Shown here in pieces: positions 8,009-46,056 of a stretch of DNA of 64,000 nt. Position 1 is the stretch's first letter. Each line of letters starts with the position of its first letter. The notes under the pieces are model-generated. The model saw only the letters and a program-made list of their open reading frames with translations, was not told the DNA's origin and ran no database searches. The position numbers were made by a program, and so were the translations under genes. Source of the stretch: a virus; the IMG/VR virus record IMGVR_UViG_3300045988_180880, positions 256,001 to 320,000 of that record; one strand, 5' to 3'.

Positions 8009-8017
8009 AGAGTTTAA

Positions 8018-9112
8018 TTATTTTTTATTAATACCAACACTAGATATCTCGGATACAACCTGACATCTAGAATATTTAAAGTCTTCTAGGTCATAGGAAT
8101 TTGTATATGACATTGCTGATCTAAGATAGGAATCCATGTTTTTTGCCCACCCTGCTAATGTATATTCAATTTCTAAGACCACGCTTTTTCCTTCTGAAGT
8201 TTTTAATTTTTCTCTGTCTACGGTTTCTATTGATTTTCCTAAGATTTCTGCTTGTGCTCGTTTAGTTGACATTCCATAATACTCTCGATAAAATTTCTCT
8301 CCTCTGGTTATATCTATACTTTCTGGAAGGGATTCATAATATTCGCCGTAATATTCTCTTAGCACTGGACCGGCCGCTTCTAATGCTTTTCCAAATGTAC
8401 TTCCCATCATAACATAATCTGCTCCAAGTGCTAAGCATTTAATTACGGCCGAAAAAGTGCTAATTCCTCCATCGGCGATAATTTTTGTACGCCCTGAACA
8501 TTCTATCTTAACCTGAAAAGTATCATTAATCAGAGAACCCATAGGATAATGAATACCAGTCTGAGTAGAAGTAATACAACCAGCTCCACCACCTATACCT
8601 ACTCTAAGATAATCAAATCCAGCTTTATCATACAATTTATAGGTCTTAGGGTTAGCTATATTTCCACCCATGATTTTTATTAATGTTCCATATAATTCTC
8701 TAAGAGTTCGACCAAGTTCTATCTGACTCTCCATATGTCCATTAGCTATATCAATTAAGACATATAATCCAGATCCTGTACTTTGTTGATGCTGTTTTAT
8801 AAAATTTTCTTCAATCTCTTTCATAGAAAAAGCACAAAATACTTCAGAACATAATTTGAGTCTTTCAGAAAGAGGTACATTTCTGGGGATAATACATGAA
8901 ATTAGATTATCATGAAAAGTTTTATAATTTTTTGGACTAACCACTGATGCCATAGGTGCTGCAATAACTGGAAGGAATTTGCTATCTTCTCTGCCATCTA
9001 TTCTAGGAACCCATGGAATACATTGAGATCTACTATTTATTCTTGTTACTACTTCTGGAATGATTGTTATCTCTTCAAGTGAATACAAAATAGTTGGTTT
9101 ATTTTCTAACAT
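8018..9112 (-). CDS. IMPDH/GMP-reductase-family oxidoreductase (GuaC-like)
   Basis: TIM-barrel motifs: catalytic-Cys loop GIGGGAGCITSTQTGIHYP, phosphate-binding IADGGI and GADYVMMGS. No CBS insert. Confidence 0.7.
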   Translation of the reverse strand: MLENKPTILYSLEEITIIPEVVTRINSRSQCIPWVPRIDGREDSKFLPVIAAPMASVVSPKNYKTFHDNLISCIIPRNVPLSERLKLCSEVFCAFSMKEIEENFIKQHQQSTGSGLYVLIDIANGHMESQIELGRTLRELYGTLIKIMGGNIANPKTYKLYDKAGFDYLRVGIGGGAGCITSTQTGIHYPMGSLINDTFQVKIECSGRTKIIADGGISTFSAVIKCLALGADYVMMGSTFGKALEAAGPVLREYYGEYYESLPESIDITRGEKFYREYYGMSTKRAQAEILGKSIETVDREKLKTSEGKSVVLEIEYTLAGWAKNMDSYLRSAMSYTNSYDLEDFKYSRCQVVSEISSVGINKK

Positions 9113-25431: not shown

Positions 25432-26160
25432 ATGAATAAGTACAATAAAGATGAATTAGAGAGATTAATTTTTAAAGAAAATTTATCTTATAAAGAAATT
25501 GGCAAAAAATATGGAGTATCTGGAAATACTATTAGAAAGAATGCAAAAAAGTTAGGAATAGTGTTACCTAAGAGAAGAAATATAAATCCTAATGAAACTT
25601 TTAATAAAGGAAAACAGATTCATATAGCTAACAAAAAACAAAATTCTAATAATAGTAAATTAGATCTCATATCTGATAATGATTTTATTGAAATTATCAA
25701 GACAAAGGATAATTGGAAAGATATATTAGTTTCACTTGGATATAATAAACATGGATCTAAATTTATTAGGGATAAAATAAGAAAAAGATGTTCGAATTTG
25801 GGAATAAATTTAAATCTTAAACAAAATCAACTAGATACTGTACCAATTTTATCTGTAACTAAAGGAGATTTATTTAAAAAACGTTCTAATTGGCAGAACG
25901 CTAGATCTAATATTCAAAATTCAGCAAGAAAAATATTTTTTAAGAATTGTCTTGATCCTAAATGTATAGTTTGTGGATATACTAATCATGTGGAAGTAGC
26001 ACATATAAAGGCAGTTAGTAATTTTAGTGAGGATTCATTAATATCAGAAATTAACGATATTTCTAATTTAATAGGTTTATGTCCTAATCATCATTGGGAG
26101 TATGATAATGGATTATTAGATATAAGTAAATACATAAATCATGAAAATAATAAGAAATAA
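25432..26160 (+). CDS. HNH homing endonuclease with N-terminal HTH module
   Basis: C-terminal CIVCGY...HVEVAHIKA...LCPNHHWEYDNG. The N-terminal LSYKEIGKKYGVSGNTIRKNAKKLG is shared with the 27388 and 36489 genes. Confidence 0.8.
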   Translation: MNKYNKDELERLIFKENLSYKEIGKKYGVSGNTIRKNAKKLGIVLPKRRNINPNETFNKGKQIHIANKKQNSNNSKLDLISDNDFIEIIKTKDNWKDILVSLGYNKHGSKFIRDKIRKRCSNLGINLNLKQNQLDTVPILSVTKGDLFKKRSNWQNARSNIQNSARKIFFKNCLDPKCIVCGYTNHVEVAHIKAVSNFSEDSLISEINDISNLIGLCPNHHWEYDNGLLDISKYINHENNKK

Positions 26161-27387: not shown

Positions 27388-28251
27388 ATGAATGAAAGTA
27401 AATTAAGTAATGTAACAAAAGAAGAATTAGAAAAACTAATCTTTGGAGAAAAATTATCCTATGAAGAAATAGGTAGGAGATATGAAGTTTCTGGAAGTGC
27501 TATTAAAAAGAAGGCTAAAAAATTAGGTATAGAACTTCCTAAGAAAAGAGATATAAATTCTAATGAAACTTTTAATAAAGGATACTCTTTTAAGTATAAT
27601 AAGAAAGATTTAGAGAAGTATTTAGGTGAAGGAAAGAGTTATAAAGAGATTGGAAATATTTATGGAGTATCTTCATCATCTATATATAGGGCAGTTAAAA
27701 GTTTTGGATTATCACCTAAGAAAAAATCTCCTAAGAAAAAAGAGTCAAAAAATTTGAATAAACCTAAAATTATAATAAATTCTGTAGATGATAGTGTTTT
27801 TTCAGATTATGTAAAGGATAGTTTATCAATAGCAGAAGTCGCTAGATCAATTGGAATAGATAATAATAAAATTAATACTAGCGTTTATAGAGAAATTCAT
27901 AAAAGAATCGATTCTTTAAAGTTAGATACATCTCATTTTACAGGAGGTGCATGGAATGTAGGAGATAGATTTAGAAAAATAGATAAAGGATTTCCATTAA
28001 GTGAAGTTTTAGTAAAAAACTCATCATATAAATGTACTAATTCTTTAAGGAAAAAGCTATTTAATGAAGGTGTAAAAGAACGAAAGTGTGAATGTTGCGG
28101 TATAACTGAATGGAATGGAAAGCCTGCACCATTACAACTTCATCATATAGATGGAGATAATACTAATAATTCTTTAGAAAATCTTCAAATACTTTGTCCT
28201 AATTGTCATGCTCAAACAGATAATTATTGTAGTAAAAATAAAAACGTCTAA
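27388..28251 (+). CDS. HNH homing endonuclease with duplicated HTH modules
   Basis: CECCG...LQLHHIDGDNTNN...LCPNCHAQTDNY, plus two LSYEEIG / KSYKEIG HTH-like repeats. Confidence 0.8.
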   Translation: MNESKLSNVTKEELEKLIFGEKLSYEEIGRRYEVSGSAIKKKAKKLGIELPKKRDINSNETFNKGYSFKYNKKDLEKYLGEGKSYKEIGNIYGVSSSSIYRAVKSFGLSPKKKSPKKKESKNLNKPKIIINSVDDSVFSDYVKDSLSIAEVARSIGIDNNKINTSVYREIHKRIDSLKLDTSHFTGGAWNVGDRFRKIDKGFPLSEVLVKNSSYKCTNSLRKKLFNEGVKERKCECCGITEWNGKPAPLQLHHIDGDNTNNSLENLQILCPNCHAQTDNYCSKNKNV

Positions 28252-28335: not shown

Positions 28336-29148
28336 ATGTACATAAGAAGAAAAGTATTCTCACTATTACAAGACGGTGAGACAGGAGAAGAGAAGTATTT
28401 TTCTACGACCGATGTAACTTTGGATAATCTTGAAGAAAGAATTTTTAGTATTTCAATTCCAACTGAAGAAGAATTAGAACAAAGAGAATTCGGTGCTAGA
28501 CAGAGAAAACAGAATAGAAAACTAGCTAGATCTATTCACAATGCCGAGATGCAAGCAAATAAAGCAGCTAAGGCACAAGAAAAAGCAGCTAAAATAGTTT
28601 CTAATCCAGCTAATTTAGTTGATGAGAAGAAAATGGAAGAAGCTCAGAAACTTACTAAGAAAGCACAAAAAGCAGTTGAGTCTTCTAATCGTAATGCAGG
28701 TCAAGCTTCTCAACAAGTAAAGAATATCTCTAAAACTAGAAAGTCAGTTGCGACAAATCCGGGAGGTCTTGAAATTAAAAATCAAGGTGCAGGAGATATA
28801 ACTGTTAAGAAAGAAGGTGGTAATGTAACTGCTCATAAAATTGCTTCTAAGAAAAGTGGTCAGACAACAACTACTGTAAGAACAACGTCAACTAAGCCTG
28901 ATGTTGTAGTTGATAAGATGACATCCAAAGGTTCTAAGAAAGTTTCTACAGAGGCAGTAAAGAAATCCGCTGAGAAAACTCAAAAAGTTGCAGAAGTAGC
29001 TCAAAAAACAACAAAAGACTCAAAGAAGATTCTGAATGGGGCTAAAAAATTAATGAACACAAAAGCTGGTAAAATAGCTGGAGGAGTTGCTTTAGCTAGT
29101 GGTGCGATGATCGGGGCTAAAAAGTTATATGATCATAAAAAGAAATAA
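28336..29148 (+). CDS. Lys/Ala-rich N-box protein, paralog of 34367 gene
   Basis: MYIRRKVFSLLQD..GEEKYFSTTDVTL is shared with 34367. It has a C-terminal Gly/Ala hydrophobic segment. Confidence 0.55.
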   Translation: MYIRRKVFSLLQDGETGEEKYFSTTDVTLDNLEERIFSISIPTEEELEQREFGARQRKQNRKLARSIHNAEMQANKAAKAQEKAAKIVSNPANLVDEKKMEEAQKLTKKAQKAVESSNRNAGQASQQVKNISKTRKSVATNPGGLEIKNQGAGDITVKKEGGNVTAHKIASKKSGQTTTTVRTTSTKPDVVVDKMTSKGSKKVSTEAVKKSAEKTQKVAEVAQKTTKDSKKILNGAKKLMNTKAGKIAGGVALASGAMIGAKKLYDHKKK

Positions 29149-29158
29149 AAAAGATAAT

Positions 29159-29191
29159 CTATAGAGGTAGTGTAATCAATCTCCTCTATAG
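29159..29191 (+). terminator. hairpin CTATAGAGG/CCTCTATAG
   Basis: 33-nt element identical to the one at 34962-34994, after the paralogous gene. Confidence 0.6.
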
Positions 29192-29215
29192 AACTTAATA
29201 TAAATATTATAAAAT

Positions 29216-30149: not shown

Positions 30150-30251
30150 ACTATCTTTAATTTTAAATTACTTTTACTATAATTGAATACCTATTCCATT
30201 TTAAGGATGTAGTAAGGAATGATATTCAGTTTATTATATATTTCTAATAAT

Positions 30252-30292
30252 AAAAAAAATGAGATACACTATTCTCACGAACTATGTATCTC
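30252..30292 (+). repeat. REP-A hairpin, copy 1
   Basis: A-run followed by GAGATACA-ctattctcacgaacta-TGTATCTC. The loop sequence is conserved in all 3 copies. Confidence 0.7.
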
Positions 30293-30326
30293 TTGGCAAG
30301 TTACTACAAAAATTAATGTAGCAAGT

Positions 30327-30363: not shown

Positions 30364-30383
30364 CATATATAAGGCTTTGAAGT
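30364..30383 (+). promoter_or_regulatory. promoter-like box CATATATAAGGCTTTGAAGT
   Basis: One of 4 near-identical boxes; the others directly precede tRNA genes or an ATG. Confidence 0.4.
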
Positions 30384-30427
30384 GATAAAAATAATACTGT
30401 CTTATTTTCACAAACTGTACTGCCTTT

Positions 30428-30526: not shown

Positions 30527-30537
30527 TACCTTAATGA

Positions 30538-30577
30538 TAAAAAATGAGATACACTATTCTCACGAACCATGTATCTC
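30538..30577 (+). repeat. REP-A hairpin, copy 2
   Basis: AAAAATGAGATACACTATTCTCACGAACCATGTATCTC. Confidence 0.7.
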
Positions 30578-30628
30578 TGCGTAGCAAATTTAATCAACAC
30601 AGATTGTGAAGATTAAATTCTTATATTA

Positions 30629-30648
30629 ACATATATAAGGCTTTGAAG
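30629..30648 (+). promoter_or_regulatory. promoter-like box CATATATAAGGCTTTGAAGT
   Basis: Ends 15 nt upstream of tRNA-Glu. Confidence 0.45.
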
Positions 30649-30663
30649 TCTTATTAAAAATGT

Positions 30664-30735
30664 GGTCCTATCGTCTATCGGTTAGGACGCGAGATTTTCA
30701 TTCTCGAAAGAGGAGTTCGATTCTCCTTAGGACTA
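30664..30735 (+). tRNA. trnE: tRNA-Glu (anticodon TTC)
   Basis: Acceptor GGTCCTA/TAGGACT (G1.U72), D stem GTCT/GGAC, anticodon arm CGAGA-ttTTCat-TCTCG, T arm AGGAG-ttcgatt-CTCCT. Confidence 0.85.
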
Positions 30736-31451: not shown

Positions 31452-33656
31452 AAAAATCAGAAACAATATTTCAAAAGTTATTTTCAGGAATTAGTTTTGG
31501 AAATTCACGTATACCTTTAATTATGTAGTAGAGGCTTAAGATAGAATAAAATCTTAAGAAAATACCTTAAAATGCTGGAAAATATAAAATATAGATCAGC
31601 ATCTCTATTTATCGATTAAAAATAGAGTTCAACGACTATAGTAGGTACTTAGATAATATAGTCTAAATTTAATAAAATATATTAAAATAAATTGTACGTT
31701 CAAATGTATTTAGTAAAGGTGGGGGAAGAGGGTATTCTGTTATTGGAGGAACTGGAAATGGAAGATTCTTAGATAATGAAAGAAATTCGCCCTTACTTGG
31801 TAATTCACAGCCTTCTTCTAGGTTATCCGGTTATCTTGATAGAATGGCAGAGCTTAGGTCATATTATCTTTTAGATATTACAAAGATGGCTACAAATTTC
31901 TTTTCAGATTATGTAGTTAATTTTATATCTCAAGATACCCAACAAATAGTTTCTGTATTAAATCCTGAAGATTCTACAAATAATGAAGCTGTAACTACTC
32001 GATTAAATGAGATTCTTTTAAAAGATATTAAAATAATTGATTATATACGAGACCATATAAATGACTATGTATTTTATGGAGGTTATTATAGTATGCTTCA
32101 AACTCAAAGAGATGAAAAAGGTCATCTTGTATTTAGAACAGAAGAACTTAATAATCCAAATGCAGTAGTTATAAAGAAGAAAAAGAACGAGGATGGAAAT
32201 ATAGAAGATATATTTTTAGCAATCGGAGATGATGGAAATCTATATGAAATTCCTAGTACTGAGGTAATATATATAAGTAATCCTAAACTTCGACTTACAA
32301 ATGATCTCGAAGAAGGATGGAAAGAAAAGTCTAAACCAGAAAAGCCAAAATTAGGAAGAAATAAGGGATCAGAAAATAGAAATAAAGTTCTTAGGAAAGA
32401 ATCATTTATGGCTTCTGAACCGTTATTTTATTCAAGTATTTTGAAGATAAAAGAATTAGTTATAAAAGAGCTTTTGATATCTCTTATTTCGTTAAGAGAT
32501 CTTTCATCGCCTCAATTATTGGGATTAAATACCGATTAAAATTTGTCGGATTAGATAAATAAAATCTAATGGAACTTTGTAAATTGCTGGAAGATCAAGT
32601 AAAGATAAATCAGCAAAAGATAGTAAAAACTACCTTCTCAACGACTAGATACAAAGAGAGAGTTTATATATAAATTCTTAAAGATATAGTCTAGTTTAAC
32701 TAAATAATTGTTAATATTCGAAAAGTGTCCCTCTAGAGACAATGAACGAATTATGCGCTCGATTACAGAAACTTGCAAACAATACGAATGAGTTGTCTTC
32801 ATTCATCACATCTCAGTTCGATGTCACCTCGTTCATTGAGTCTGCATTAACTCAAAATGTTAAGGTTTTTCCTGACTATAATAGTACCATTACCTCAAGG
32901 ACTTCACTACTCCCACTTGATAAATTAACAGACAAACTTTTAGATCTTATACAGAATCTTGATTATGTAAGAAATAGTGTTCTTTCTCCTCTTGGATTAC
33001 CATCTACTATATTAGATGGAACATCTGGCAGTAAGTGGTTAATAAATTGGCCGTCTAGAGAAGCAATTCTTTAGATAATTAGTAAGTAAATTTGGTGAAA
33101 CTATTAATACTAGTAATACCAAGCCTTAGATTAATCTAATTAAGGTATAACGAATAAAGACTTACCAACTTATAAAAAGTTGAATTTATATTCTAAACTA
33201 TAATAAAAAGATTATAGAGATATCATTGCAGTACTTCAACAGTCAGAAAGAGCTAATTCAAGAGTAACATCATTAATTTCAGGAATAAAAGATTCAATAG
33301 TAAATCTTGTTTGTAGTATTTATAAGGTAATATATAATGAAGATTTAGATCCAAGTTTAGTTCAAATTCATATATTCCAGAAAACAACTGTAGAGTATAA
33401 CAATCAGATAAATGAAGCTGAATCAGTTAGTGGTTTAGTTCAAGGTATCTCTGGAGTTTTATCTAATGCACTCCAAACTTTAGAACAAGCAACTCCATTA
33501 ATTGAACCAGAATCATATTTAAGTTATATTCAAAACTTACTTAAAGATATTGACCCAAGTACAGAATCTCTAATAAATGAAGATACGATTAAGCAGTATA
33601 TAGAATTTCTTAATCAAAAACTTCAGGCACAACGAGAACAGCTTGGACTCAGTTAA
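31448..33656 (+). CDS. portal protein (putative), 4 exons
   Basis: join(31448..31517,31695..32536,32721..33039,33229..33656), about 552 aa. The block LSPLGLPSTILDGTSGSKW-SVLQQSERANSRVTSLISGIK resembles the conserved portal stem/clip region. The ATG overlaps the stop of the upstream endonuclease remnant (ATGA). No homology search was done. Confidence 0.6.
31518..31694 (+). ncRNA. mini group I intron class A (177 nt), portal intron 1
   Basis: P1 CCUU/GAGG, P2 CUUAAGAU/AUCUUAAG, P3 UACCU/AGGUA. Core blocks P AAAUGCUGGAAA, Q GAUCAGCA, R UUCAACGACUA, S UAAUAUAGUC. It ends AAAUUG. Confidence 0.8.
32537..32720 (+). ncRNA. mini group I intron class A (184 nt), portal intron 2
   Basis: P1 CCGAU/GUCGG, P2 AUUAGAU/AUCUAAU, P3 CUUUG/CAAAG. 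Core blocks P AAAUUGCUGGAAG, Q AAUCAGCA, R UCAACGACUAGA, S AAGAUAUAGUC. It ends UAUUCG. Confidence 0.85.
33040..33228 (+). ncRNA. class B mini intron (189 nt, group I-like architecture), portal intron 3
   Basis: Shares AGUAAGUAAAUU, GGUGAAA, UAACGAAUAAAGACUUAC, AAUUUAUAUUCUAAACUAUAAUA and AUUAUAGA with the terL element. Proposed P1 is UGGU/GCCG and P2 is UCUAGAGAA/UUCUUUAGA. It ends CAUUG. Boundaries are tentative. Confidence 0.6.
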
Positions 33657-33671
33657 AATTATTCAAAGAAG

Positions 33672-34037
33672 ATGATAATTAAACGTAAATTATTTGCTTC
33701 TAATGATCCCACTCCAGAACAGTCTCCAGAAATTGGTCTAGCTAAACAAGAAATGACTTCTAAGGACTTGCAAATAGAACAAATGAGACTTCAACGTCAA
33801 ATCCTAGAAACTCAGAGAATGCGACAGAGAATGCAAGCTGAGGAAAGAATGCAAGAAATGAAGCAAGTCAATCAAACTCAGAAACTAGAACAGAAAAAGG
33901 ATGAAGCTCAAAAAGATAATCAATTAAAAGTAAAGAAAATTGACGCTCAGAATAGTAGGCAGGAAGTAAATAATATAGGATTGTACAAAACAAAATCAAA
34001 GCCTACGCCAACAGTATCAATGAAAACAAACTTGTAA
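33672..34037 (+). CDS. N-box coiled-coil protein
   Basis: Starts MIIKRKLFASND; Gln/Met/Arg-rich. Confidence 0.55.
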   Translation: MIIKRKLFASNDPTPEQSPEIGLAKQEMTSKDLQIEQMRLQRQILETQRMRQRMQAEERMQEMKQVNQTQKLEQKKDEAQKDNQLKVKKIDAQNSRQEVNNIGLYKTKSKPTPTVSMKTNL

Positions 34038-34041
34038 GATT

Positions 34042-34134
34042 ATGATTAAAGAAAAGACATTTACAGAAGGAGTGGAAGATTCTAAAGAACAAGAAGAGAA
34101 AGGATTTGATCCACTAAGACCGTATATAAAATGA
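34042..34134 (+). CDS. 30-aa N-box-like micro-ORF
   Basis: MIKEKTFTEG...; its stop overlaps the next ATG (ATGA at 34131). Confidence 0.3.
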   Translation: MIKEKTFTEGVEDSKEQEEKGFDPLRPYIK

Positions 34135-34364
34135 AAATTAAAAGATTTTCCGGTTATTCAGAAGCTGCCCCTGAAGGTGTAACTTATCAAAAATCAAGTC
34201 AGGTAATTACAAGATATATTCTTGATCCTCTTGATTCTAGTGTAGATACCTTAGAAGAAACAGATAAACTTGGGGTAACTAAACGAAAGAGTGATAGAAT
34301 TAAGAAGGTAATAAAACCTCTTAAAAAATATTTTAAATATAAATCAAATAAAAACAGTAATTAA
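34131..34364 (+). CDS. small N-box protein
   Basis: Starts MKIKRFSGYSE. Confidence 0.5.
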   Translation: MKIKRFSGYSEAAPEGVTYQKSSQVITRYILDPLDSSVDTLEETDKLGVTKRKSDRIKKVIKPLKKYFKYKSNKNSN

Positions 34365-34366
34365 GT

Positions 34367-34951
34367 ATGTATATTAGACGTAAAGTATTCTCATTACTAC
34401 AAGATGAGACAGGAGAAGAGAGATACTTCTCTACTACTGATGTAACACTGGAAAATGAGGAAGAGAGAACCTTTAGTGTTGCAGAAGATGCAGAAAGTTT
34501 GGAAGAAAAGGATTTCTCTGATAAAAAAAAAGAGGAAGATGATGAGCCAAAACTTACAACTAGTGATAAGATTAATATTAAGTTGAATAAAGCTCTGATT
34601 ACTAAGAAGGATCGCGAAGCATTTGTTGAAGCTTATGAAGATGGAAAATCTCATAAATACGGAAAACAGGCAGCTAAGTATGCAGCAATTGGTAATGGTA
34701 TAGGTGGCGGTATATTAGGTGCTGCAGTTGGTGGTAAAAAGGGTGCAGCTATTGGAGCCGGAATTGGCGCTGTTTCAGGTGCAGCAGGATCTTATGCTGG
34801 TACTAGAGCAGGTGTTGCACTTAATAAGCTTGCTAGAAAACATAGTGGTAGTCTTGATACTAAAACAAAATTAGCAGTAGATCGAGTAAAAGTAGCAGAT
34901 GGAAAAATGACAAAAGAAGAATTTGCTAAAAAATGGAGATCTAAGAAGTAA
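34367..34951 (+). CDS. N-box glycine-zipper protein, paralog of 28336 gene
   Basis: Starts MYIRRKVFSLLQDETGEERYFSTTDVTL. Contains AAIGNGIGGGILGAAVGGKKGAAIGAGIGAVSGAAGSYAG. Confidence 0.6.
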   Translation: MYIRRKVFSLLQDETGEERYFSTTDVTLENEEERTFSVAEDAESLEEKDFSDKKKEEDDEPKLTTSDKINIKLNKALITKKDREAFVEAYEDGKSHKYGKQAAKYAAIGNGIGGGILGAAVGGKKGAAIGAGIGAVSGAAGSYAGTRAGVALNKLARKHSGSLDTKTKLAVDRVKVADGKMTKEEFAKKWRSKK

Positions 34952-34961
34952 AAGAAATAAT

Positions 34962-34994
34962 CTATAGAGGTAGTGTAATCAATCTCCTCTATAG
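34962..34994 (+). terminator. hairpin CTATAGAGG/CCTCTATAG
   Basis: Identical to 29159-29191. Confidence 0.6.
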
Positions 34995-35096
34995 AACAAA
35001 CGCGCTAGATTTTTACAACCGAAGATTAATCGCACTAGGTGCAAAAAGTAAACGGTTGATAGTTGTAAAGCGCGAGAACTATAAAATAATAAATGT

Positions 35097-35992
35097 ATGA
35101 TAGGAACAGTTAACCCATTTAGTGACCCTGAATTTAAGAAACAAATTTTAGGGAAAGAAGGGAGAGCTGTTGATGACCCGGGAGATTATGAGATTTTGCA
35201 GCCGGAAGAGGATGTATCTAAAAACCTAAAAAATATTATAGGGTCAGCTCCAGTACTCCCTAAAACGGCTCGCAATATTATTATGGATGCTAGTGCTATT
35301 GCGAGTAATCAAAAAGAACAAAAAGCACTAGAATTAACTCATAAATTGAATGAAGTCTTTACTAGTTATAATAAAGAATATAATATAGATCTTCATGTTG
35401 ATTTCGGAAGCCTCTCAAATACTTTAGTTAATGTGGCAGATCCGAAGTCTAGACATATCTTAGAATTATATGTTTCTGAGGTATTTCAAAGTATAAGACC
35501 TATTTTAATTCTCAATATGATTTCTAAACTTTGTCTTTGTATTGATTATATACTCGATCCAATGAGACTCTTTGATAGTTCACAAATGACTTTACAAGAT
35601 TCATTTATTGCCGTTAATATATCTGCGGCTTAGTTGAAATACTAAGAAAATTATACTAAAATGCTGAAAGATAGTTAAAACATAAATCAGCAAAAAGGAT
35701 TACTAATATAAATCCTTTCTCAACGACTAAATGTATAACTAAATTTGAAATATAATTTAGATGATATAGTCTAATTTAATAAAATAAATATTAAAAATAG
35801 ATATGAGAAAAAATTATGCAATTTATTCAACAATTAGAAGATATGAAGAGTCAGATAATTGTTAAAGGTTCTGATCTTGAATTGAAAAAAATTGCAGAAG
35901 AATCTGGAAATGAAGAGTTGAATAGTGAAGAGTCTAAGCAAATAGTAGCAGACTTTATGAGATTATTTCAAAAAGAACATGGAATAGAATAA
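35097..35992 (+). CDS. hypothetical morphogenesis-module protein, 2 exons
   Basis: join(35097..35614,35806..35992). The junction reads ...DSFIAV-EKIMQFIQQLEDMK.... Function unknown. Confidence 0.65.
35615..35805 (+). ncRNA. mini group I intron class A (191 nt)
   Basis: P1 CCGU/GCGG, P2 CUUAG/CUAAG, P3 UAUAC/GUAUA, P6 AGGAUU/AAUCCU. Core blocks P AAAUGCUGAAA, Q AAUCAGCA, R UCAACGACUA, S UGAUAUAGUC. It ends GAUAUG. Confidence 0.8.
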
Positions 35993-36029
35993 AAAATGAG
36001 ATACACTATTCTCACGAACTATGTATCTC
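35991..36029 (+). repeat. REP-A hairpin, copy 3
   Basis: AAAAAATGAGATACACTATTCTCACGAACTATGTATCTC, immediately after the stop codon of the 35097 gene. Confidence 0.7.
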
Positions 36030-36046
36030 TACTTTAAATTATGATA

Positions 36047-36129
36047 ATACCTACTACGACATAGGTAATTAGTACTATTTCTATATAAAAAGTGTAGTAA
36101 AGAAATAGCACTCGTTTATTCTACTACAC
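36047..36129 (+). ncRNA. candidate pseudoknotted small RNA, copy X2
   Basis: Hairpins TACCT/AGGTA and CTATTTCT/AGAAATAG; the latter differs from X1's TATAAGTT/AACTTATA but still pairs. Loop GTGTAGTA is complementary to the downstream TACTACAC. Confidence 0.35.
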
Positions 36130-36148
36130 ATATATAAGGCTTTTAAGT
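36127..36148 (+). promoter_or_regulatory. promoter-like box CACATATATAAGGCTTTTAAGT
   Basis: Lies 44 nt upstream of the Thr-Asn-Ser tRNA cluster. Confidence 0.45.
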
Positions 36149-36192
36149 TTTATGATATTTTCTGATTTATATTTCATAATTAAATCAGAATT

Positions 36193-36266
36193 GCCTCTTT
36201 AGCTCAGTTGGCCAGAGCACGTGATTTGTAATCTCGGGGTCGTTGGTTCGAATCCGACAAGAGGCT
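36193..36266 (+). tRNA. trnT: tRNA-Thr (anticodon TGT)
   Basis: Acceptor GCCTCTT/AAGAGGC, D stem GCTC/GAGC, anticodon loop ttTGTaa (one stem mismatch), T arm GTTGG-ttcgaat-CCGAC. Confidence 0.85.
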
Positions 36267-36278
36267 CAAAAATAATAT

Positions 36279-36350
36279 TCTCCGTTAGCTCAGAGGCAGA
36301 GCATTTGACTGTTAATCAAAGGGTCGGTATATCGTAATTACCACGGAGAG
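36279..36350 (+). tRNA. trnN: tRNA-Asn (anticodon GTT) with aberrant T arm
   Basis: Acceptor TCTCCGT/ACGGAGA, D stem GCTC/GAGC, anticodon arm TTTGA-ctGTTaa-TCAAA. The T arm is GGTA-tatcgtaat-TACC and lacks TTC. Confidence 0.65.
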
Positions 36351-36358
36351 CTGTTTTA

Positions 36359-36443
36359 GGAGAGGTGGCAGAGTGGTCGATTGCGGCGGTCTTGAAAACC
36401 GTTGTACTGCGAGGTACCCGGGGTTCGAATCCCTGTCTCTCCG
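36359..36443 (+). tRNA. trnS: tRNA-Ser (anticodon TGA), type II
   Basis: Acceptor GGAGAGG/TCTCTCC, anticodon arm GCGGT-ctTGAaa-ACCGT, long variable arm, T arm CGGGG-ttcgaat-CCCTG. Confidence 0.85.
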
Positions 36444-36488
36444 CAATAATTTTAAAGATAAGAAAAATTATAAAAAAAACAATTAATT

Positions 36489-37273
36489 ATGGGAAAAGAG
36501 AAATATAACAAAGAAGAATTAATAAGATTATTAATTCATGAAGGAAAATCTTATAAAGAAGTTGCAGCTATGCGGGGTGATGGAAGCACTGGAGAAGCTA
36601 TACGTAAAGCAGCAAATAGATACGGGATAAAAGTATCAGATAGAAAGAAACTAAGAAAATGTGAATATTGTGGTAAAGAGCATGATGGTTCTTTTGGTTC
36701 TGGAAGATTTTGTTGTTCAGATTGTGCAAAGAAATATTCACTTAGTTTCAGCAAAGGTAAAAAACCAGAAGATAAATCTACTAAAGAAGAAAAAGTAGAA
36801 GAGTCTGTAAAGATAGCTCCTCCTAAGGAATGTACCACTGAATTGTCTAGATTTGATGGAAAATTAACTTCAGATTTATTAGGATATGTAGGTGAATGTG
36901 CGACAATGTTTCAATTAGCAAGAGTTGGAATTATGTCATCTAAACCTTGTGGAGTAGATAGATATGATGTAATTGCAGATATAGGAGGAATACTTTATAA
37001 AATTCAGGTTAAATCTACTGCTGGCTATATTGATAAAGATGGAGCATTATCGTACAATCTTCAAAATAAATCTGGATTATATAAAAAGGTGAAGTAGATT
37101 TCTTTGCCTTGTATAATTATGTACTTGATATTATACTATTAGTTCCCTTTAGTATACTTGAAGGTAAATATAAGGTGCGTATTCATTTTGGAAAAGAAAA
37201 AGATGAATCAGATTTATTCTTTTGGAAAGATTATATTTTATTTGATGTAGCGAAATCTTTATTATCCAGTTAA
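36489..37273 (+). CDS. HTH + zinc-ribbon + PD-(D/E)xK-type homing endonuclease, needs a -1 frameshift at AAA-AAG (37083-37088)
   Basis: Frame 0 stops at TAG 37095. The -1 frame from 37088 reads [54 protein letters not shown] to TAA 37271-37273. Upstream lies [17 protein letters not shown] (D...QxK nuclease core). Confidence 0.6.
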
Positions 37274-37286
37274 TTAATAATAAGTT

Positions 37287-37368
37287 TGTGTGATACTCAA
37301 GTGGTTAACGAGGATAGACTGTAAATCTATTAGCTTTGCTTTCGGGAGTTCGAATCTCTCTCACACAA
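37287..37368 (+). tRNA. trnY: tRNA-Tyr (anticodon GTA), type II
   Basis: Acceptor TGTGTGA/TCACACA, anticodon arm ATAGA-ctGTAaa-TCTAT, long variable arm, T arm GGGAG-ttcgaat-CTCTC. Confidence 0.85.
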
Positions 37369-37388
37369 CATAAAATAAAATTATAAAT

Positions 37389-38372
37389 ATGAAAGTAAAA
37401 AGATTTAGTAAATTAGATACTCTACAAGATTCTATAAAAATTGTAAGTAAGAAAACAGGAGAATCTCTCACAATAAATAGATTTAAATCTTTTGTAGATA
37501 TTCTTGGAAAATTTATTAAGAGACTTAGAGAATGGAGTAATAAGAGACCGTCATTTGATATTTACTTAGGTTCTGAGAAAGTAGCAGAATTAAATCTTAT
37601 AGAAAAGTCCAAAGAAGAATTAAATATAATGTGGATTGAAACTTATGAAGATTATAGAGGTAAAGGATATTCTCAGGCTATTCTAACAGAGTTGATTAGA
37701 TTTGCTAAGTCTCAAGGTTATAAATATGTTACTCTTGAAGTGCCTGGTAGATCTCCTGATGCTAGACATATTTATGAGAAGCTTGGATTTAAGGATGATG
37801 GAGTCTTGACAACCCCAGAAGAAGATTTTTATTGGGGAGGTCTTACTAGAATGAAACTTAAATTGTTTGCAAATATTACTAATGTAACAAGTTTAACTCC
37901 ATTGAAAAATATAATAACAACTACTACTAGAAAAGCTACCGGACTATCTAATTCTAAAATAGCAACACAAGCAAAGAATGCAGCATTAGATTTACACTCT
38001 GTAACTAAAGATGCTCAAAATTCTTTTATATCTCCTAATGGTAATGGATATGTAACTAAAAGTTATTTTACTAAAAGACGTCCTAAAGGAAAGAAAGTTG
38101 AGTTTGTAGGAGATTTATTTGGGAATCCTAATCAATTACAGAAACCGAAAGTTATTAATAGCAGCAGTAGTAATAAAGGAGGAAATTCTTCAATTAGTAG
38201 TTTAGATGCTAAAAGAATGAATTTAAAACGGTATAATTCTCATAAAACAAGATCTTTGGAAGTAACACCTACTGCACCTGGACAAAATGAGTGGGTTAAA
38301 CGTGTAAAAACTAATGGACAAGCTAGGTGGGAAAATAATGGGTTATATATTCCTGGTTTTGAGAAATTATAA
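37389..38372 (+). CDS. N-box GNAT acetyltransferase-domain protein
   Basis: Starts MKVKRFSKLDT. GNAT motif A YRGKGYSQAILTELIRFAK and ...IYEKLGFKDDG. The C-terminal half is low-complexity. Confidence 0.65.
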   Translation: MKVKRFSKLDTLQDSIKIVSKKTGESLTINRFKSFVDILGKFIKRLREWSNKRPSFDIYLGSEKVAELNLIEKSKEELNIMWIETYEDYRGKGYSQAILTELIRFAKSQGYKYVTLEVPGRSPDARHIYEKLGFKDDGVLTTPEEDFYWGGLTRMKLKLFANITNVTSLTPLKNIITTTTRKATGLSNSKIATQAKNAALDLHSVTKDAQNSFISPNGNGYVTKSYFTKRRPKGKKVEFVGDLFGNPNQLQKPKVINSSSSNKGGNSSISSLDAKRMNLKRYNSHKTRSLEVTPTAPGQNEWVKRVKTNGQARWENNGLYIPGFEKL

Positions 38373-38392
38373 AAAGAGAAAGGATCAAAATT

Positions 38393-40490
38393 ATGATTAA
38401 TTTCACAGACCATTTTGATCCCACTAAAAATATAGAAAAAGATTTAGCAAAAGTAGATCTTAGGGATCAATACACATCATTAACAGAAGATGAAAAGATA
38501 ATGGTATTTCTTCGTCTCAAAGGATTTACACACAGACCTCCAACGATAGAAAGATTATATTCTGATGATTATTATTTAGGTAGTCAGGAATTTTTTGATC
38601 ATGGAGATGTAATATTTCCTTTTTGGAAAGATGGATTGAAGAGAATTTTTCCAAATGAAGTTACAACAGCAAAACCATTACTCTGTTTGTCAGGAGCTAT
38701 TGGTATAGGTAAGTCTACGGTATCTAAATTAGCTATGACAAATACACTAGCTAGGTTAAGTTGTATGGCTAATCCGTGGAGAACATTTAAATTAGGTAAA
38801 AAACCACTTAGTTTTATCATCTTTCATAGAGATGAAGATGTAGCAAATGCTGAATTTCGAAGATGGATGCTAGATGATGTATTAAAGCAGAGTCCATTTT
38901 TTAGAAATTTACCACACAGACATAATATAAGAATATTAACTTCTGGTCCTAGGGGTAATGTAGTATAAAAAGTTGCCCTCCATATTAAGAAATTATATGG
39001 TAATAAAGTAAGTAAATTCGGTGAAAGGATAATCCCAATACCGAGTCAAGGATCTTAGATAAATCTAAGTAATCTTTGATGTAACGAATAAAGACTTACT
39101 AACTTATATAATTATATAAGTTAAATTTATATTCTAAACTATAATAGAGTATTATAGAAATAGATTGGCAGGTGGACTAGGAACTGACTTGATTTTTGCA
39201 ATCATGTCTGAGGTCAATTTTTGGCCTAACGAAGAAAAAGCCATGGAACGTGTAAATAGTACGTATATTCGTATTACATCTCGTTTTGATGTAAAAGAAA
39301 GTTTAACATTAGCCGGAAATCTAATAATTGATAGTTCTAGTAGAGGTGCAGGTGGTCCAACTGAAATATTTCTTGAGAATGCAGAACCTCAATTTACTTG
39401 GGATTGTAGACCTTCTCATTATGAAGTTAGAAAAAATCTGTACGAACGTTCAAGGGGAATAACTTTCTCAGTTTATACTGGAGATGGTAAATATCCTCCA
39501 AGAATATTAAATAAAAATGATAAAGAAGAGAACTATAAATTAGAAGATGATCAAGACCCTGATAGAGTGGAACATGTACCTATTCAATTATTTGGAGAAT
39601 TTAAATCTGATTTGATTAAAGCTCTTCAAGATAAATCTGGTATTAATACAGGATCATCAGATAGTTTTTTTGGAGGTACTATAGAACACTTATCTAAATG
39701 TTCAACAATAAAGAATAGAATTCCTGAAATTATTACAGTTGATTTTTATGATAAAGAAGATAGGATTATTAATCATGTAGAAAAAATGATTAATCTTATT
39801 CCAAAAGGTACTCCTATATGGCTAGGTCTTGACTTAGGTGTAGTAGATGATACAACTGGAATAGCAGCAGTTAGTTTTGATCATTGGGAAAATATAAATG
39901 GTACTTTAGTTCCTAAGGTTAAATGTCATTTTGTTTTAGGTGTATCTAGGTTAGAAGGACAAGAGACGAGTTTATTTCACATAGAGCAGTTTATAGAAGA
40001 TCTTAACAAGAAATTTAATATTATAGTTAGTGCTGACCAAGCTTTTTCTAAACAAATACTTCAATATTGTGAAAGAGAAGGAATTAGAAATAATGGGAGA
40101 ATTTCTACAGATAATACTCCTTGTGAACCGGCTCTTTATTTGAAGTATATAATAAACAATGAACTTCTTGAAATTCCTGAATATAAAAGATTACAAAGAG
40201 AGGCATATGATTTAAGATATGTTGGTCCAAAACGTAAAGTAGATCATCCTAAAAAAGCATCAATATCTCCATTATTTGATAATCCTGATGGTTCTAAGCC
40301 AGGAAGCAAGGATTTATGGGATGCTTTAGCTTCTAGTGTTTATTCTTTAAAATTATCTATTGATGAAGGAGAAGAGATGGGATATTCTTCAGGAATAGCT
40401 AAACAACTCGAATCTCTTACTAAAATAACAGCGGATCCAAGAGAAGAGTCACAAAAAGAACTTCAAAACATGTTGGAAAATATATTTTAA
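38393..40490 (+). CDS. terL: terminase large subunit, 2 exons
   Basis: join(38393..38956,39168..40490). Walker A SGAIGIGKST is in exon 1. Walker B LIFAIMSE and the RNase H-like nuclease motif WLGLDLGVVDDTTGIAAVS are in exon 2. The junction reads ILTSGPRG-AGGLGTDLIFAIMSE. Confidence 0.8.
38957..39167 (+). ncRNA. class B mini intron (211 nt, group I-like architecture) in terL
   Basis: P1 GGGGU/GCCCU (U.G at the splice site), P2 CCAUAU/AUAUGG, P3 GUAAGU/ACUUAC, proposed P7 GAAUAAA/UUUAUaUUC, P8 AACUUAUAU/AUAUAAGUU, P9 CUAUAAU/AUUAUAG. It ends GAUUG. Confidence 0.65.
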
Positions 40491-43347: not shown

Positions 43348-45137
43348 ATGAAATTTATTGCAAAATTGTTTTCGACAATGCTACCTGCATCTGACAGTAG
43401 TATGATACCTCGAGATGTTGCGGAATCTTTCTTTAGTAGCCAAGAGTTTAAACAAGCCTTAGAGGATAGAAAGCTCTTTGGAACATTAACACACTTAGCC
43501 AGAAATCTATCATCTGCCAAAAATGGTGGTCCTGCAGTATCTAAGACTATAGGGAAAGATGATCTCCTTTATTGCTAATAATGAGAGGCATAGATAAAAA
43601 GTTTATGAAAATGTTTTTAATTGCTGGAAAAAATAATAAATTAAATCAGCAAAAATAGATAATAAAATCTATTTCTCAACGACTAGAGTAAACACTAAGA
43701 ATACCGATTAATTCTTAGATAATATAGTCTATTATTGATTTTAAAATCAATTAGGTTAAGTTATTAATTGGCGAAAGTTCACCTACACATGTGTTAACTA
43801 AAGTTTGGTTCGAAAATGACGGCTGGTGCTATGGGGAGTTTGAGGTTCTCTCCGAAGATGGCCTAGACGATGAAGCTATACAAAGAATCAGAAGAGTAAA
43901 GGGCCTTCTTAAAAATGGTTGCAAAATTGGAATTTCCTGTGTCGTTCTTTAATTAACTGAGACTTAAGAAATTCATAAGTTCTTAAGAAAATTTCATAAA
44001 ATGCTGGAAAGGTTAGAATCAAATCAGCATCATCTAGCAGATAGCGAGATGTTCAACGACTAAAGATGGAACCTAGATTTTTAGGATAATATAGTCTAAA
44101 TTTAATAGCAAGCAATATATTAAAAAAAATTGGGATATTGGGAAAATTCTAGCGGAAGTGACTATTTAAAGCGTATGGTTGCGCTAAAAGGGGCTGACCT
44201 TACATTAAACCCTTCTTGGAAAAATGCGGGTATAGTTTCAATTGATGGTTCTGAGAGCGAAAAAACATTCTCTGAACTTGATATAGAGTATGATCCTGAA
44301 GCTTATAAGGATACAAAAATAAAAGTTAAGCAATTTTCTAACTTCGATTCGGGAGATTTATTAAAGTCTTCTAAGATTAATGGAAAGTTTACGCAATTAA
44401 AAGCTAAATCATTTTCATTTAATTCTGAAATAAATTCAATAGAAGATACTATCGTTAGTGAATCTGTAATAGAAGAACCTATTCAAAAAGATTTCTCAGT
44501 TGCTACAGTTAAAGAGAGAGTTAGAATTGGAAAGATGTCCCCTCGCCAAAGATTTCGTCTACTTGTTTTAGAATATAAGCAAGCAGTAAAACAAGCTGGT
44601 GGTTCTGAAAAGATGGATCCAGAAACACTTAAAATCATGAAGTCTTTGTTTACTACAGATCTTTTGGATATTATGAAGTCGATTACACCAGAAATCATGA
44701 ATGGAAAAAATCCAGGAACATTACTTGGTGCTTCTAGTTTAGGTAAGAATGTACGTAAATAATATGCGTTTTTTATATGAATTGCTGGAAATATCTAAAT
44801 GAGATAAATCAGCATCAAATCATACTTAGATAAATCTAAAGAAGTGATTTGTTCAACGACTATGTATATAAACTGTCAAAATAGACAGAAGATATAGTCT
44901 AAATTATAAATAAATTTTATAAATACATTGATAAGTGTACAAAAATTGTTCTTACCATATAAGATGGCTATGTCTGAGGTATCTAAAACTAATGCAATAT
45001 CTAAGGCAAGATATCAAAAAATTCAAGCTGCTTATTCTGACTTTGTTAATGCAATGTTAGAGGAAATATTCGCGCCAAAGAATGGTACGAAGAAAGAAGA
45101 GCCAGTAGAAGAAGAAAACCCTGAAGAAAACAGTTAA
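43348..45137 (+). CDS. prohead protease (HK97/S78-like) with C-terminal scaffold-like extension, 4 exons
   Basis: join(43348..43573,43771..43949,44133..44756,44931..45137). LFGTLTHLARN lies in exon 1. GLLKNGCKIGISCVVL-GYWENS spans the exon 2/3 junction and resembles the Ser-containing ..G.S.G. block. The family call is by eye only. Confidence 0.55.
43574..43770 (+). ncRNA. mini group I intron class A (about 197 nt), protease intron 1
   Basis: P3 UGUUU/AAACA. Core blocks P UAAUUGCUGGAAA, Q AAUCAGCA, R UCAACGACUAGA, S UAAUAUAGUC. P9 is AUUGAUUUU/AAAAUCAAU and it ends UAAUUG. The 5' boundary is ambiguous: P1 is either UUUAUU/GAUAAA (used here) or CUUU/GAGG ending at 43570. Confidence 0.7.
43950..44132 (+). 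ncRNA. mini group I intron class A (183 nt), protease intron 2
   Basis: P1 UCUU/GAGA, P2 CUUAAGAA/UUCUUAAG, P3 UUUCAU/AUGGAA. Core blocks P AAAUGCUGGAAA, Q AAUCAGCA, R UUCAACGACUA, S UAAUAUAGUC. It ends AAAUUG. Confidence 0.85.
44757..44930 (+). ncRNA. mini group I intron class A, P2-less (174 nt), protease intron 3
   Basis: P1 ACGU/GCGU, P3 UAUAU/AUAUA. Core blocks P GAAUUGCUGGAAA, Q AAUCAGCA, R UUCAACGACUA, S AAGAUAUAGUC. It ends ACAUUG. Confidence 0.85.
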
Positions 45138-45143
45138 AAGATT

Positions 45144-46037
45144 ATGAAAGTAGAAAGACGTAAATTATTCTCTTCTTCGATTTCTCCACGGCGCAAGTTA
45201 TTTTCAGGTGGAGTAACTCAGGCAGAATATAAGAAAATTCAGTGTAGAGATTGTGGTTATATTATGGATACTTTAGCCACTACAACTAACTTCTTATGTC
45301 CTAAATGTGGAGCTGTAAATAGATTTAATGTTTTAGAAGTTACACCAAGTCCTGAAAATACTCCTGAAGCTGTACAAGTCGAAGTATCAAAAATTGAAGA
45401 AGTAGAAAAAGGATTCTCAAGACGTTCGTTATTCGGCGGAGATAATAATGCCGCTGTACAAAAAGAATTTTCAGAACCGTCGAACGAATTTGAGGTAAAA
45501 TTAAAAGAATTTTCTGGCAAAACTTTAAATGAATCAGAAGTTGTTAAGGCATTTGGTATTTCCGCCGAAGATTTAGTTGAAAAAGGTTTTGCTAGTATTG
45601 ATGAAGATAATAAAGTTACTATTCCTGAAACTGCATTCTTACAATCTAAATTATTCTCTAAGTTAATCGTATCAGTGACTAAGATTTTGGATTTAGACCC
45701 AATAGAAGGACCTAAGGAAGACATAATTAATATGTTAGAATCTAAAGGATCTTTAGGACCGAAAGGTATAATGCTAATTAAAAAAGCTCATTCTCTTCCA
45801 CTTGAAGAAATGAAAGAAGTTGAGTTCTCTAGCACTGAAGAAGTAGAGGATTGGATTAAAGATTCTGGAATTATTGGAGACTTAAAGATAGAGTTTGGTA
45901 ATTCTGCAATGGGAATTAAAGAATTTACAAAGATCCTAGAAGAGAGATATGATGATGCTCCAGATAATATAATAGATATATTAATTGATCGTGGAGTAAT
46001 CAAAATTCAAGGAAATCAAGTTGATATAATGAAATAA
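45144..46037 (+). CDS. N-box zinc-ribbon protein with repeated K-x-F-S motifs (scaffold-like?)
   Basis: Starts MKVERRKLFSSSISPRRKLFSGG. Contains CRDCGY...CPKCG. Internal motifs: KGFSRRSLFGG, KEFSEP, KEFSGK, KLFSKL, VEFSST. Confidence 0.55.
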   Translation: MKVERRKLFSSSISPRRKLFSGGVTQAEYKKIQCRDCGYIMDTLATTTNFLCPKCGAVNRFNVLEVTPSPENTPEAVQVEVSKIEEVEKGFSRRSLFGGDNNAAVQKEFSEPSNEFEVKLKEFSGKTLNESEVVKAFGISAEDLVEKGFASIDEDNKVTIPETAFLQSKLFSKLIVSVTKILDLDPIEGPKEDIINMLESKGSLGPKGIMLIKKAHSLPLEEMKEVEFSSTEEVEDWIKDSGIIGDLKIEFGNSAMGIKEFTKILEERYDDAPDNIIDILIDRGVIKIQGNQVDIMK

Positions 46038-46056
46038 AATATTTATAAAACTCAGT

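Follow-up and report, generated by a model that had tools for sequence, protein, structure and literature searches.

Two short elements interrupt the portal and large terminase (terL) genes in a 64,000-nucleotide stretch of viral DNA (positions 256,001 to 320,000 of IMG/VR record IMGVR_UViG_3300045988_180880; hereafter the window, in which all positions are counted). Both are, in our firm opinion, compact group I introns without open reading frames (ORFs), belonging to one sequence lineage, termed class B, and interrupting essential phage genes. The portal element spans positions 33040-33228 (189 nt) and the terL element positions 38957-39167 (211 nt), and they represent two copies of one element. 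A first-pass annotation of this DNA, made from the letters alone, had noticed long blocks shared by the two, and both elements do carry these blocks where it had placed them. The words TAACGAATAAAGACTTAC, AATTTATATTCTAAACTATAATA and AGTAAGTAAATTYGGTGAAA occur exactly twice each in the 64 kb window, as against 0.26, 0.00 and 0.05 occurrences respectively expected in shuffled sequence when up to three mismatches are allowed. Neither element contains an ORF, and the upstream reading frames enter each by a few codons and then stop.

Boundaries of the two elements and the phages that carry them

Comparison with intron-less alleles in related phages showed that the boundaries initially proposed for both elements are exact. 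A scan of IMG/VR for relatives of terL yielded 28 loci, with 0 to 3 insertions in the gene, at three sites. The intron-less terL alleles L081, L082 and L105 read CCTAGGGGT followed directly by GCAGGTGG, the junction being CCTAG(G/A)GGT-GC(A/T)GGTGG with nothing between (here and below a hyphen marks the insertion point). The DNA flanking the junction in L081 and L082 is the same as that of the window, and the L105 protein is 85% identical. These alleles fix the terL element as exactly 38957-39167, beginning after a U and ending in G. Of the three intron sites in the terL genes of the relatives L081-L108, one lies inside Walker A, the second is that of class B and the third is 24 nt further downstream; all of them follow the rule of a U before the intron and a G as its last residue. 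The insertion in terL sits between the Walker A and Walker B motifs, within the ATPase domain. Joining 38393-38956 to 39168-40490 gives a 628-aa protein, and in tblastn searches its residues 42-586 form one continuous alignment with uninterrupted large terminases from cultured phages; the spliced product SGPRG-AGGLGTD, as originally predicted, is backed by the intron-less alleles. Searches against PHROGs gave only a marginal terminase match for the spliced TerL and none for the portal fragments.

The intron-less portal alleles L109, L110, L111 and L113 are without exactly the 189 nt. The occupied allele reads AGTAAGTGGT, intron, CAGTA (W-S-V), and the empty allele reads TCAAAATGGC followed directly by AAGTA (W-Q-V). 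The portal intron is thus accompanied by a U at -1, a C at +1 and a cluster of mostly synonymous changes within ~30 nt upstream. Comparing window positions 33010-33039 with 1770-1800 of L109, we noted T versus C at -1, C versus A at +1 and the Ser codon AGT versus TCA, with the downstream exon being identical in both. The upstream changes look like either a co-conversion tract or an adaptation of the exon to P1/P10.

The window has ~30% G+C, and its terL is 99-100% identical to terL on IMG/VR contigs measuring 335-378 kb. The human digestive system is the annotated source of at least two of them, including IMGVR_UViG_3300045988_180488, which is huge_phage_1602 in the collection of a Chen lab study on "Jug" (jumbo gut) phages (bioRxiv 2025.08.10.669567 = PMC12363816; Sci Adv 2026 = PMC12880540). 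Jug phages have genomes of 360-402 kb with ~30% GC and infect Bacteroides or Phocaeicola (PMC12363816; PMC12880540). That study reported 2513 group I introns in 136 of 139 Jug genomes, with a mean of 18.5 per genome and a size of ~206 nt. It also described terL as divided by group I introns into two or three pieces in every group Alpha genome, noted that the portal gene is fragmented, and recorded numerous free-standing endonucleases of the HNH and PDDEXK_5 types. For group Alpha phages, RNA reads were reported to span the flanks of the terL intron with precise mapping (PMC12880540). The window resembles Jug phages in its ~30% GC, ORF-less introns of ~206 nt, split terL and stand-alone HNH and PDDEXK_5 genes, and its intron-less terL relatives, at 85% and 61% identity, correspond to the Beta (~82%) and Gamma (~57%) groups of that paper. 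It almost certainly derives from the same phage clade, and matches group Alpha. Given the introns, split terL and RNA reads reported for this clade, the phenomenon has already been published as group I introns, very probably with these very introns included. The Jug paper counts introns by subtype models and does not describe the class B lineage, its structure or the GGU/GCC rule discussed below; the element of novelty is possibly the recognition of a single homogeneous lineage restricted to GGU sites.

The interrupted genes appear as separate ORFs, as would also be seen if the elements were DNA-level insertions resembling miniature inverted-repeat transposable elements (MITEs), which are never removed from the RNA and are tolerated through split polypeptides or translational bypass. 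We give this alternative almost no credence, since terL would be split inside its ATPase domain, with Walker A parted from Walker B, the elements have neither terminal inverted repeats nor target duplications and possess a covarying RNA structure, and the published RNA reads join the terL exons. Also considered and rejected were translational bypass, an intein (in-frame stops, and a length of 211 nt that is not a multiple of 3), a group II intron (unsuitable size, absence of domains V and VI and of any Rfam match) and an IStron (no IS part). At 186-228 nt and with no ORF, class B does not qualify as an endonuclease-carrying mobile intron either.

A group I fold supported by covariation

Exact-word scans of IMG/VR recovered core blocks in 80 loci. 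The contigs concerned, of up to 378 kb, stem from a handful of gut metagenomes and each carry several copies. We extracted 30 unique class B elements of 186-228 nt from 16 different insertion sites. A covariance model, R1, was constructed from a plain MAFFT alignment (A3) of 14 short-form copies, with P7 left out of the model. Within the window R1 matches the portal copy (173.7 bits), the terL copy (111.1 bits) and nothing else. In 773 kb of related loci it detects 107 copies at 106 bits or more, followed by a gap and then by 17 full-length matches at 27-41 bits, which are canonical "class A" introns of the same phages.

On alignment A3 a nine-helix group I model is 93% paired, as against 30-48% in controls in which the 3' partners were slid by 1-3 columns, and P2, P5, P6 and P8 are rich in double changes. 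P9 was 65% paired on this alignment, because MAFFT had misaligned the P1 loops, the P5 extensions and P9 itself, and it was therefore redone on the model alignment. The latter, comprising 38 distinct rows fitted to R1 (P7 excepted), has 93.8% of its cells paired and double changes in 46 of 53 pairs; the helices are 87-100% paired and covarying, with P9 at 76.8%, as against 32-45% in the slid controls. The three hairpins that had been noted at the outset to differ between the copies and yet to retain their pairing correspond to P5 (ACUA/UAGU versus GGA/UCC), P6 (CCUUAG.. versus UCAAGG..) and P8 (CAACUU/AAGUUG versus UAACUUAUA/UAUAAGUUA). In P4 a U-A to C-G exchange is seen in 16 of the 38 rows. 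L2 is always a GNRA tetraloop (GUAA, GCAA, GAAA or GUGA), and J3/4, J4/5 and J8/7 are A-rich.

The group I topology drawn in the first-pass annotation, with P3 (GUAAGU/ACUUAC) around P4-P6, followed by P7, P8, P9 and a terminal G, is borne out both by this covariation and by free-energy folds, which when unconstrained recover P1-P6, P8 and P9 in the portal copy (z = -2.9) as well as the terL copy (z = -4.6). The annotation had named a lack of conservation of P3 and P7 among homologs as one of the outcomes that would speak against its reading. Over the 38 rows pairing in P3 is 100% and covariation is seen in 5 of its 6 pairs, and P7, which lay outside the search model, is likewise 100% paired with two compensatory pairs (GAAUA/UAUUC ↔ GACUA/UAGUC and GAAUA/UAUUC ↔ GUAUA/UAUAC), which favors the group I fold. 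Of the P7 originally drawn, the 5-bp core GAAUA/UAUUC stands, given its compensatory variants, but the two further A-U pairs with a bulged A are unnecessary. All of 37 rows keep the same G-C pair in P7. A bulged C and an A-U pair come before it, it appears to lie at the consensus position when aligned with RF00028, and in sequence it would be consistent with a guanosine-binding pair. The parts of the two introns are as follows.

Portal intron:
33036..33039, + strand: 5' exon end UGGU, 5' strand of P1; U33039 forms the U.G wobble at the 5' splice site, and all 16 sites end in GGT
33040..33228, + strand: class B group I intron, 189 nt, ORF-less; R1 173.7 bits, exactly absent from L109-L111 and L113
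33050..33054, + strand: internal guide GCCGU, 3' strand of P1; GCC is invariant across all class B copies
33053..33076, + strand: P2 hairpin with the GNRA tetraloop GCAA at 33063-33066; double changes in 9/10 pairs
33082..33087, + strand: P3 5' strand GUAAGU, partner 33160-33165; 100% paired, with 5/6 pairs covarying when class A is aligned alongside
33088..33123, + strand: P4-P5 domain with diverged P and Q elements (covariation alignment; RF00028 places P and Q on the corresponding terL segment), comprising J3/4 AAA, P4 UUUGGU (33091-96) with ACCAAG (33118-23), J4/5 GAA, P5 (33100-03 with 33111-14) and J5/4 AAU
33124..33145, + strand: P6 hairpin; all 6 pairs covary, 98.7% of cells paired
33152..33156, + strand: P7 5' strand GAAUA, which by analogy with the terL copy would take the position of the consensus GACUA; guanosine would presumably bind at G33152-C33193, beside a bulged C33151 and an A33150-U33194 pair
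33160..33165, + strand: P3 3' strand ACUUAC (covariation alignment)
33166..33182, + strand: P8 hairpin; all 6 pairs covary
33183-88, + strand: J8/7 AAUUUA, directly before the 3' strand of P7
33189..33193, + strand: P7 3' strand UAUUC, the putative diverged S element by analogy with the terL alignment
33198..33217, + strand: P9 hairpin (covariation alignment, free-energy fold)
33228..33228, + strand: terminal G (omega-G), 3' splice site (intron-less alleles)

terL intron:
38952..38956, + strand: 5' exon end GGGGU, 5' strand of P1 (intron-less alleles)
38957..39167, + strand: class B group I intron, 211 nt, ORF-less; intron-less alleles with identical flanks, R1 111.1 bits
38975..38979, + strand: internal guide GCCCU (exon and guide compared in relatives)
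38980..39000, + strand: P2 hairpin with a GAAA tetraloop at 38989-92 (R1 match, fold)
39008..39013, + strand: P3 5' strand GUAAGU, partner 39094-39099 (R1 match, covariation, fold)
39014..39045, + strand: J3/4, P4 (39017-22 with 39040-45) and P5 (39027-29 with 39033-35) (RF00028, R1, fold)
39046..39079, + strand: P6, long form with an inserted helix module (fold; the module recurs in introns at other sites)
39086..39090, + strand: P7 5' strand GAAUA, partner UAUUC 39130-39134 (RF00028 alignment, covariation)
39100..39123, + strand: P8 hairpin (covariation, fold)
39139..39157, + strand: P9 hairpin (R1 match, fold)
39167..39167, + strand: terminal G (omega-G) (intron-less alleles)

The pairing of the terL guide GCCCU with the exon GGGGU, as first proposed, is strengthened by relatives in which the exon reads GAGGU and the guide GCCUU, a compensatory change. 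The portal pairing UGGU/GCCG likewise gained support, as 10 of the 16 sites use GCCGU for their guide; in the portal allele without the intron, position -1 is C instead of U. A P10 can be drawn for the portal intron between the 3' exon CAGU and AUUG (33046-49).

Relation to other group I introns

The two elements had initially been described as lacking the P/Q/R/S consensus and as unlike any group I consensus, with a comparison to the Rfam model RF00028 suggested as a check. RF00028 aligns with the terL copy over model positions 1-253, but the score of 22.8 bits is below the cut-off of 50. In a scan of all Rfam over the terL element alone it was the single match (E = 5.5e-4 in a 246-nt search). 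This alignment equates AAAUUCGGUGAAA with P, AAUACCGAG with Q, ACGAAUAAAG with R and AAUUUAUAUUCU with S; GAAUA stands where R has GACUA, such that P7 is GAAUA/UAUUC instead of GACUA/UAGUC. Thus, contrary to the initial description, the P/Q/R/S elements are present in a diverged form. The portal copy gives a partial match to RF00028 of 14.9 bits, and the neighboring class A intron of the portal gene scores 38.3 bits. Sub-threshold alignments of this kind emerge only in scans of a few hundred bases: the Rfam scan of the whole window at the gathering threshold found no intron, and no class A core of the window attained the RF00028 cut-off in it. As a control we used Azoarcus-type tRNA-Ile introns from Rhodocyclaceae genomes (L128, L130), for which RF00028 gave 51.9 bits with one and missed another. 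Given that one genuine Azoarcus-type intron barely passes and a second fails, the threshold is a weak test for compact introns, and a sub-threshold score points to a weakness of the model on such introns rather than to a different fold. It follows that Rfam-based surveys will under-count compact group I introns, those of the Azoarcus type lying at or below the gathering score. The standard Rfam model is blind to class B introns at genome scale.

In the reciprocal direction, R1 aligns over its full length with the class A introns (27-41 bits) and with three Azoarcus-type tRNA-Ile introns (24-27 bits, E 5e-4 to 2e-3), at odds with the claim that the core is unlike any group I consensus. The first-pass annotation had also raised the alternative of a new ribozyme class with a superficial resemblance to group I, in keeping with the absence of any Rfam match at the gathering threshold and with core words that differ from the textbook R and S. 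The end-to-end RF00028 alignment, the reciprocal alignments of R1 with class A and subgroup IC3-type introns, the junction words held in common with class A and the adherence to the U.G and omega-G splice-site rules make this exceedingly improbable, and we reject the notion of a distinct ribozyme. The alternative designation as a divergent subgroup survives only weakly, as a name for a closely knit sequence lineage within group I.

GIR1, the lariat-capping group I-like ribozyme, has no P1 with a 5' splice site, occurs in twin-ribozyme introns, where a homing endonuclease gene lies downstream of it, and performs branching rather than ligation. Class B elements, in contrast, have a P1, a guide and an omega-G, and adjoin exons that need to be joined; furthermore, no Rfam family besides RF00028 matched either element at E<=10. 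Hence, a small GIR1-like ribozyme is a most unlikely identity for them despite its similar size, from which (~206 nt) it was suggested in the Jug paper (PMC12880540).

Class A introns (for example, that at 32540-32741 in the portal gene) resemble class B in size, lack of ORFs, host genes and order of helices. The two also have common junction words (AAAUUYGG.GAA, AAU, AACGA.UA and AUAU.UCU) and a bulged C before the P7 G. They differ in that class A keeps the textbook words for P (AAUUGCUGGAA), Q (AAUCAGCA), R (UCAACGACUA) and S (GAUAUAGUC), with P3 and P1/guide differing from copy to copy, whereas class B has P3, P7 (GAAUA/UAUUC) and junction sequences identical at all 16 sites, a P4 of UUYGGU/ACCRAG and a fixed GGU/GCC P1. 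About ten more class A cores with canonical P/Q/R/S words (AATTGCTGGAA, AATCAGCA, TCAACGACTA, GATATAGTCT) were found in the window, giving a total of 12 class A and class B introns in these 64 kb:

7547-7661, - strand: class A core
31570-31664, + strand: class A core
32582-32692, + strand: class A core
35685-35772, + strand: class A core
43619-43730, + strand: class A core
43999-44097, + strand: class A core
44780-44900, + strand: class A core
57960-58049, + strand: class A core
58377-58466, + strand: class A core
58593-58703, + strand: class A core

The 205-nt Azoarcus-type tRNA-Ile intron (subgroup IC3) is similar in size to class B and has the same minimal P1-P9 plan with a GNRA-loop P2, both being without P5abc, P2.1 and P7.1/7.2. 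The J3/4-P4-J4/5 word is nearly the same in the two (AAAUUCGGCGAAA versus AAAUUCGGUGAAA). Unlike class B, the Azoarcus-type intron is G+C rich (51%), interrupts the anticodon loop of a tRNA instead of a protein gene, has the P7 GACUA/UAGUC, and has a GNRA loop as its L9, which class B does not. As R1 scores it at only 24-27 bits, it is not a close relative, the IC3 likeness being one of architecture combined with a weak match. Classical phage introns (T4 td, nrdB and nrdD; SPO1; Twort) usually belong to subgroup IA with P7.1/P7.2, are often 0.25-1 kb long and mostly contain homing endonuclease ORFs. As with class B, their sites lie in conserved motifs of essential genes, and related phages differ in whether they carry them, but class B has none of their P7.1/P7.2, larger size or endonuclease ORF.

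Several observations weigh against an assignment of class B to functional group I introns. Both RF00028 scores lie under the 50-bit gathering threshold, and a 10 kb Rfam scan at E<=10 produced no RF00028 match to the introns. P3 is invariant within class B, and its covariation comes from the class A introns aligned alongside. At the terL site P10 is weak or absent. Finally, A+U strongly predominates in the core, where P7 contains a single G-C pair and P3 two, such that autonomous folding in vitro is not guaranteed.

The anatomy of class B, as read from its sequence, appears to match that of a splicing group I ribozyme in the U.G wobble of P1, the P7 G-C pair with a bulged C, and the terminal G. 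By analogy with other group I members the introns would be expected to follow the two-step, guanosine-initiated pathway. P1 would arise by pairing of the 5' exon end ...GGU with the guide GCC(N), which puts the U.G wobble at the splice site, and the core would be built from the P3-P7 pseudoknot, the P4-P6 domain and P8. An external guanosine would dock at the P7 G-C pair (GAAUA/UAUUC) and attack the 5' splice site, after which the terminal G would take its place and the freed exon would attack the 3' splice site. Joining of the exons would restore SGPRG-AGGLGTD in TerL and SKWS-VLQQ in the portal protein. Splicing of terL in vivo has been reported for the same phage clade (PMC12880540); dependence on guanosine and self-splicing without help from proteins are presumed. 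A variant of this explanation is that the group I fold is degenerate and non-autonomous, requiring a maturase, a chaperone or another factor from the phage or the host. The single G-C pair in P7 and two in P3, the overall GC of 24-25%, the minimal peripheral stabilizing elements and a published in vivo record that is silent on autonomy are compatible with this variant. We nevertheless regard it as unlikely in view of the conserved GNRA L2, the strong covariation in all helices, and a compact architecture that is the same as that of the efficiently self-splicing 205-nt Azoarcus intron.

Insertion sites and spread of the class B lineage

Among the collections searched, the class B lineage was seen only in viral contigs of IMG/VR. 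When 185,579 species genomes of bacteria and archaea were scanned with a gapped pattern of the core, no copy emerged, and blastn with terL and with the portal intron gave no match among 50,697 GenBank phage records. In every extracted element an exon GGT lies 7-18 nt upstream of the guide GCC. A sequence logo of the 16 sites has information only at positions -3 to -1 (2 bits each), with the rest of ±20 nt being unconserved. The U directly before the intron is present at 16/16 sites, the exon portion of P1 comprises 3-7 bp, and 11/16 sites allow a P10 of at least three pairs to the 3' exon. Every copy ends in G, as established by the intron-less alleles for the pair in the window and by an in-frame G after P9 at the other sites. 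Where the host gene was identified, the insertions fall at Gly codons within the best-conserved motifs of essential genes:

RNA polymerase beta: RYGG-KG-VVS, two sites 6 nt apart, in different phages
RNA polymerase beta': NADFDG-D
GyrB-like topoisomerase: RRRPG-MYIGG and ARSG-QNG
PhoH: GPAG-SGKS
Amidase: LDNG-HG
TerL: GPRG-AGG

The two beta-gene GGT sites are exemplified by L005 (8533-8731; RYGG-KG) and L010 (2212-2402; insertion after RYGGKG). In L018, tandem class B introns (7877-8083 and 8096-8288) surround a micro-exon of ~12 nt. Peripheral hairpins are distributed as a mosaic between class B copies (alignment A4: L002, L007, L008, L009, L035, L064). The same long P6 module is found in introns of terL, PhoH and another gene, introns at the terL site vary by a P8 loop common to introns elsewhere, and a single site can carry variants with different sets of P5, P6 and P8. 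This mosaicism suggests recombination between intron copies.

As a tentative proposal, class B could be a young, homogeneous, ORF-less lineage that colonizes sites by means of a fixed 3-nt guide, GCC recognizing GGU, followed by homologous recombination between phages and between copies; the spread itself may involve ectopic, guide-directed reverse splicing or a similar form of RNA-level targeting. The pattern of sites fits such guide-directed colonization and subsequent recombination without proving it: the 16 unrelated sites share only GGT, two sites in the beta gene are just 6 nt apart, and tandem introns, mosaic peripheral hairpins and the co-conversion-like tract at the portal intron are seen. 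Selection for splicing competence after insertion at the DNA level, or the action of trans-acting endonucleases, could produce a similar picture. If the proposal were true, class B would document in nature, with unusual clarity, how group I introns transpose in the absence of a homing endonuclease. Class B adds nothing categorically new to group I introns, but its strict GGU/GCC rule and homogeneity over 16 sites offer a tractable system for studying how ORF-less introns reach new sites. In practical terms, these introns split terL and the genes for the portal protein, RNA polymerase beta and beta', the GyrB-like topoisomerase, PhoH and the amidase into fragments that are called as separate ORFs, and a model of the R1 type, or the combination of GGU...GCC with the core words, would permit their clean removal in annotation.

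The window also contains three free-standing endonuclease genes, which are candidates for trans-acting homing enzymes:

25432-26160: HNH_2 endonuclease gene
27388-28251: HNH endonuclease gene
36489-37097: PDDEXK_5 endonuclease gene

A repeated helix-turn-helix module (repeat families D3, D5 and D16) is common to their N-termini, and none of them adjoins a class B insertion site. Ten tRNA genes (Arg, Met, Leu, Glu, Thr, Asn, Ser, Tyr, Gln and Pro) are located between 24848 and 41723, several of which are preceded by repeated cassettes, one set being at 30246-30293, 30531-30578 and 35983-36030, and a second at 30364-30405, 30630-30671 and 36129-36170. A near-identical, G+C-rich, terminator-like hairpin follows two paralogous genes with a weak Gly-zipper match (29140-29194 and 34943-34997; 28365-28455 and 34393-34483). 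Downstream of the packaging genes, the coding region 45374-47929 contains tandem repeats of 339-345 nt together with short acidic, Glu-rich repeats.

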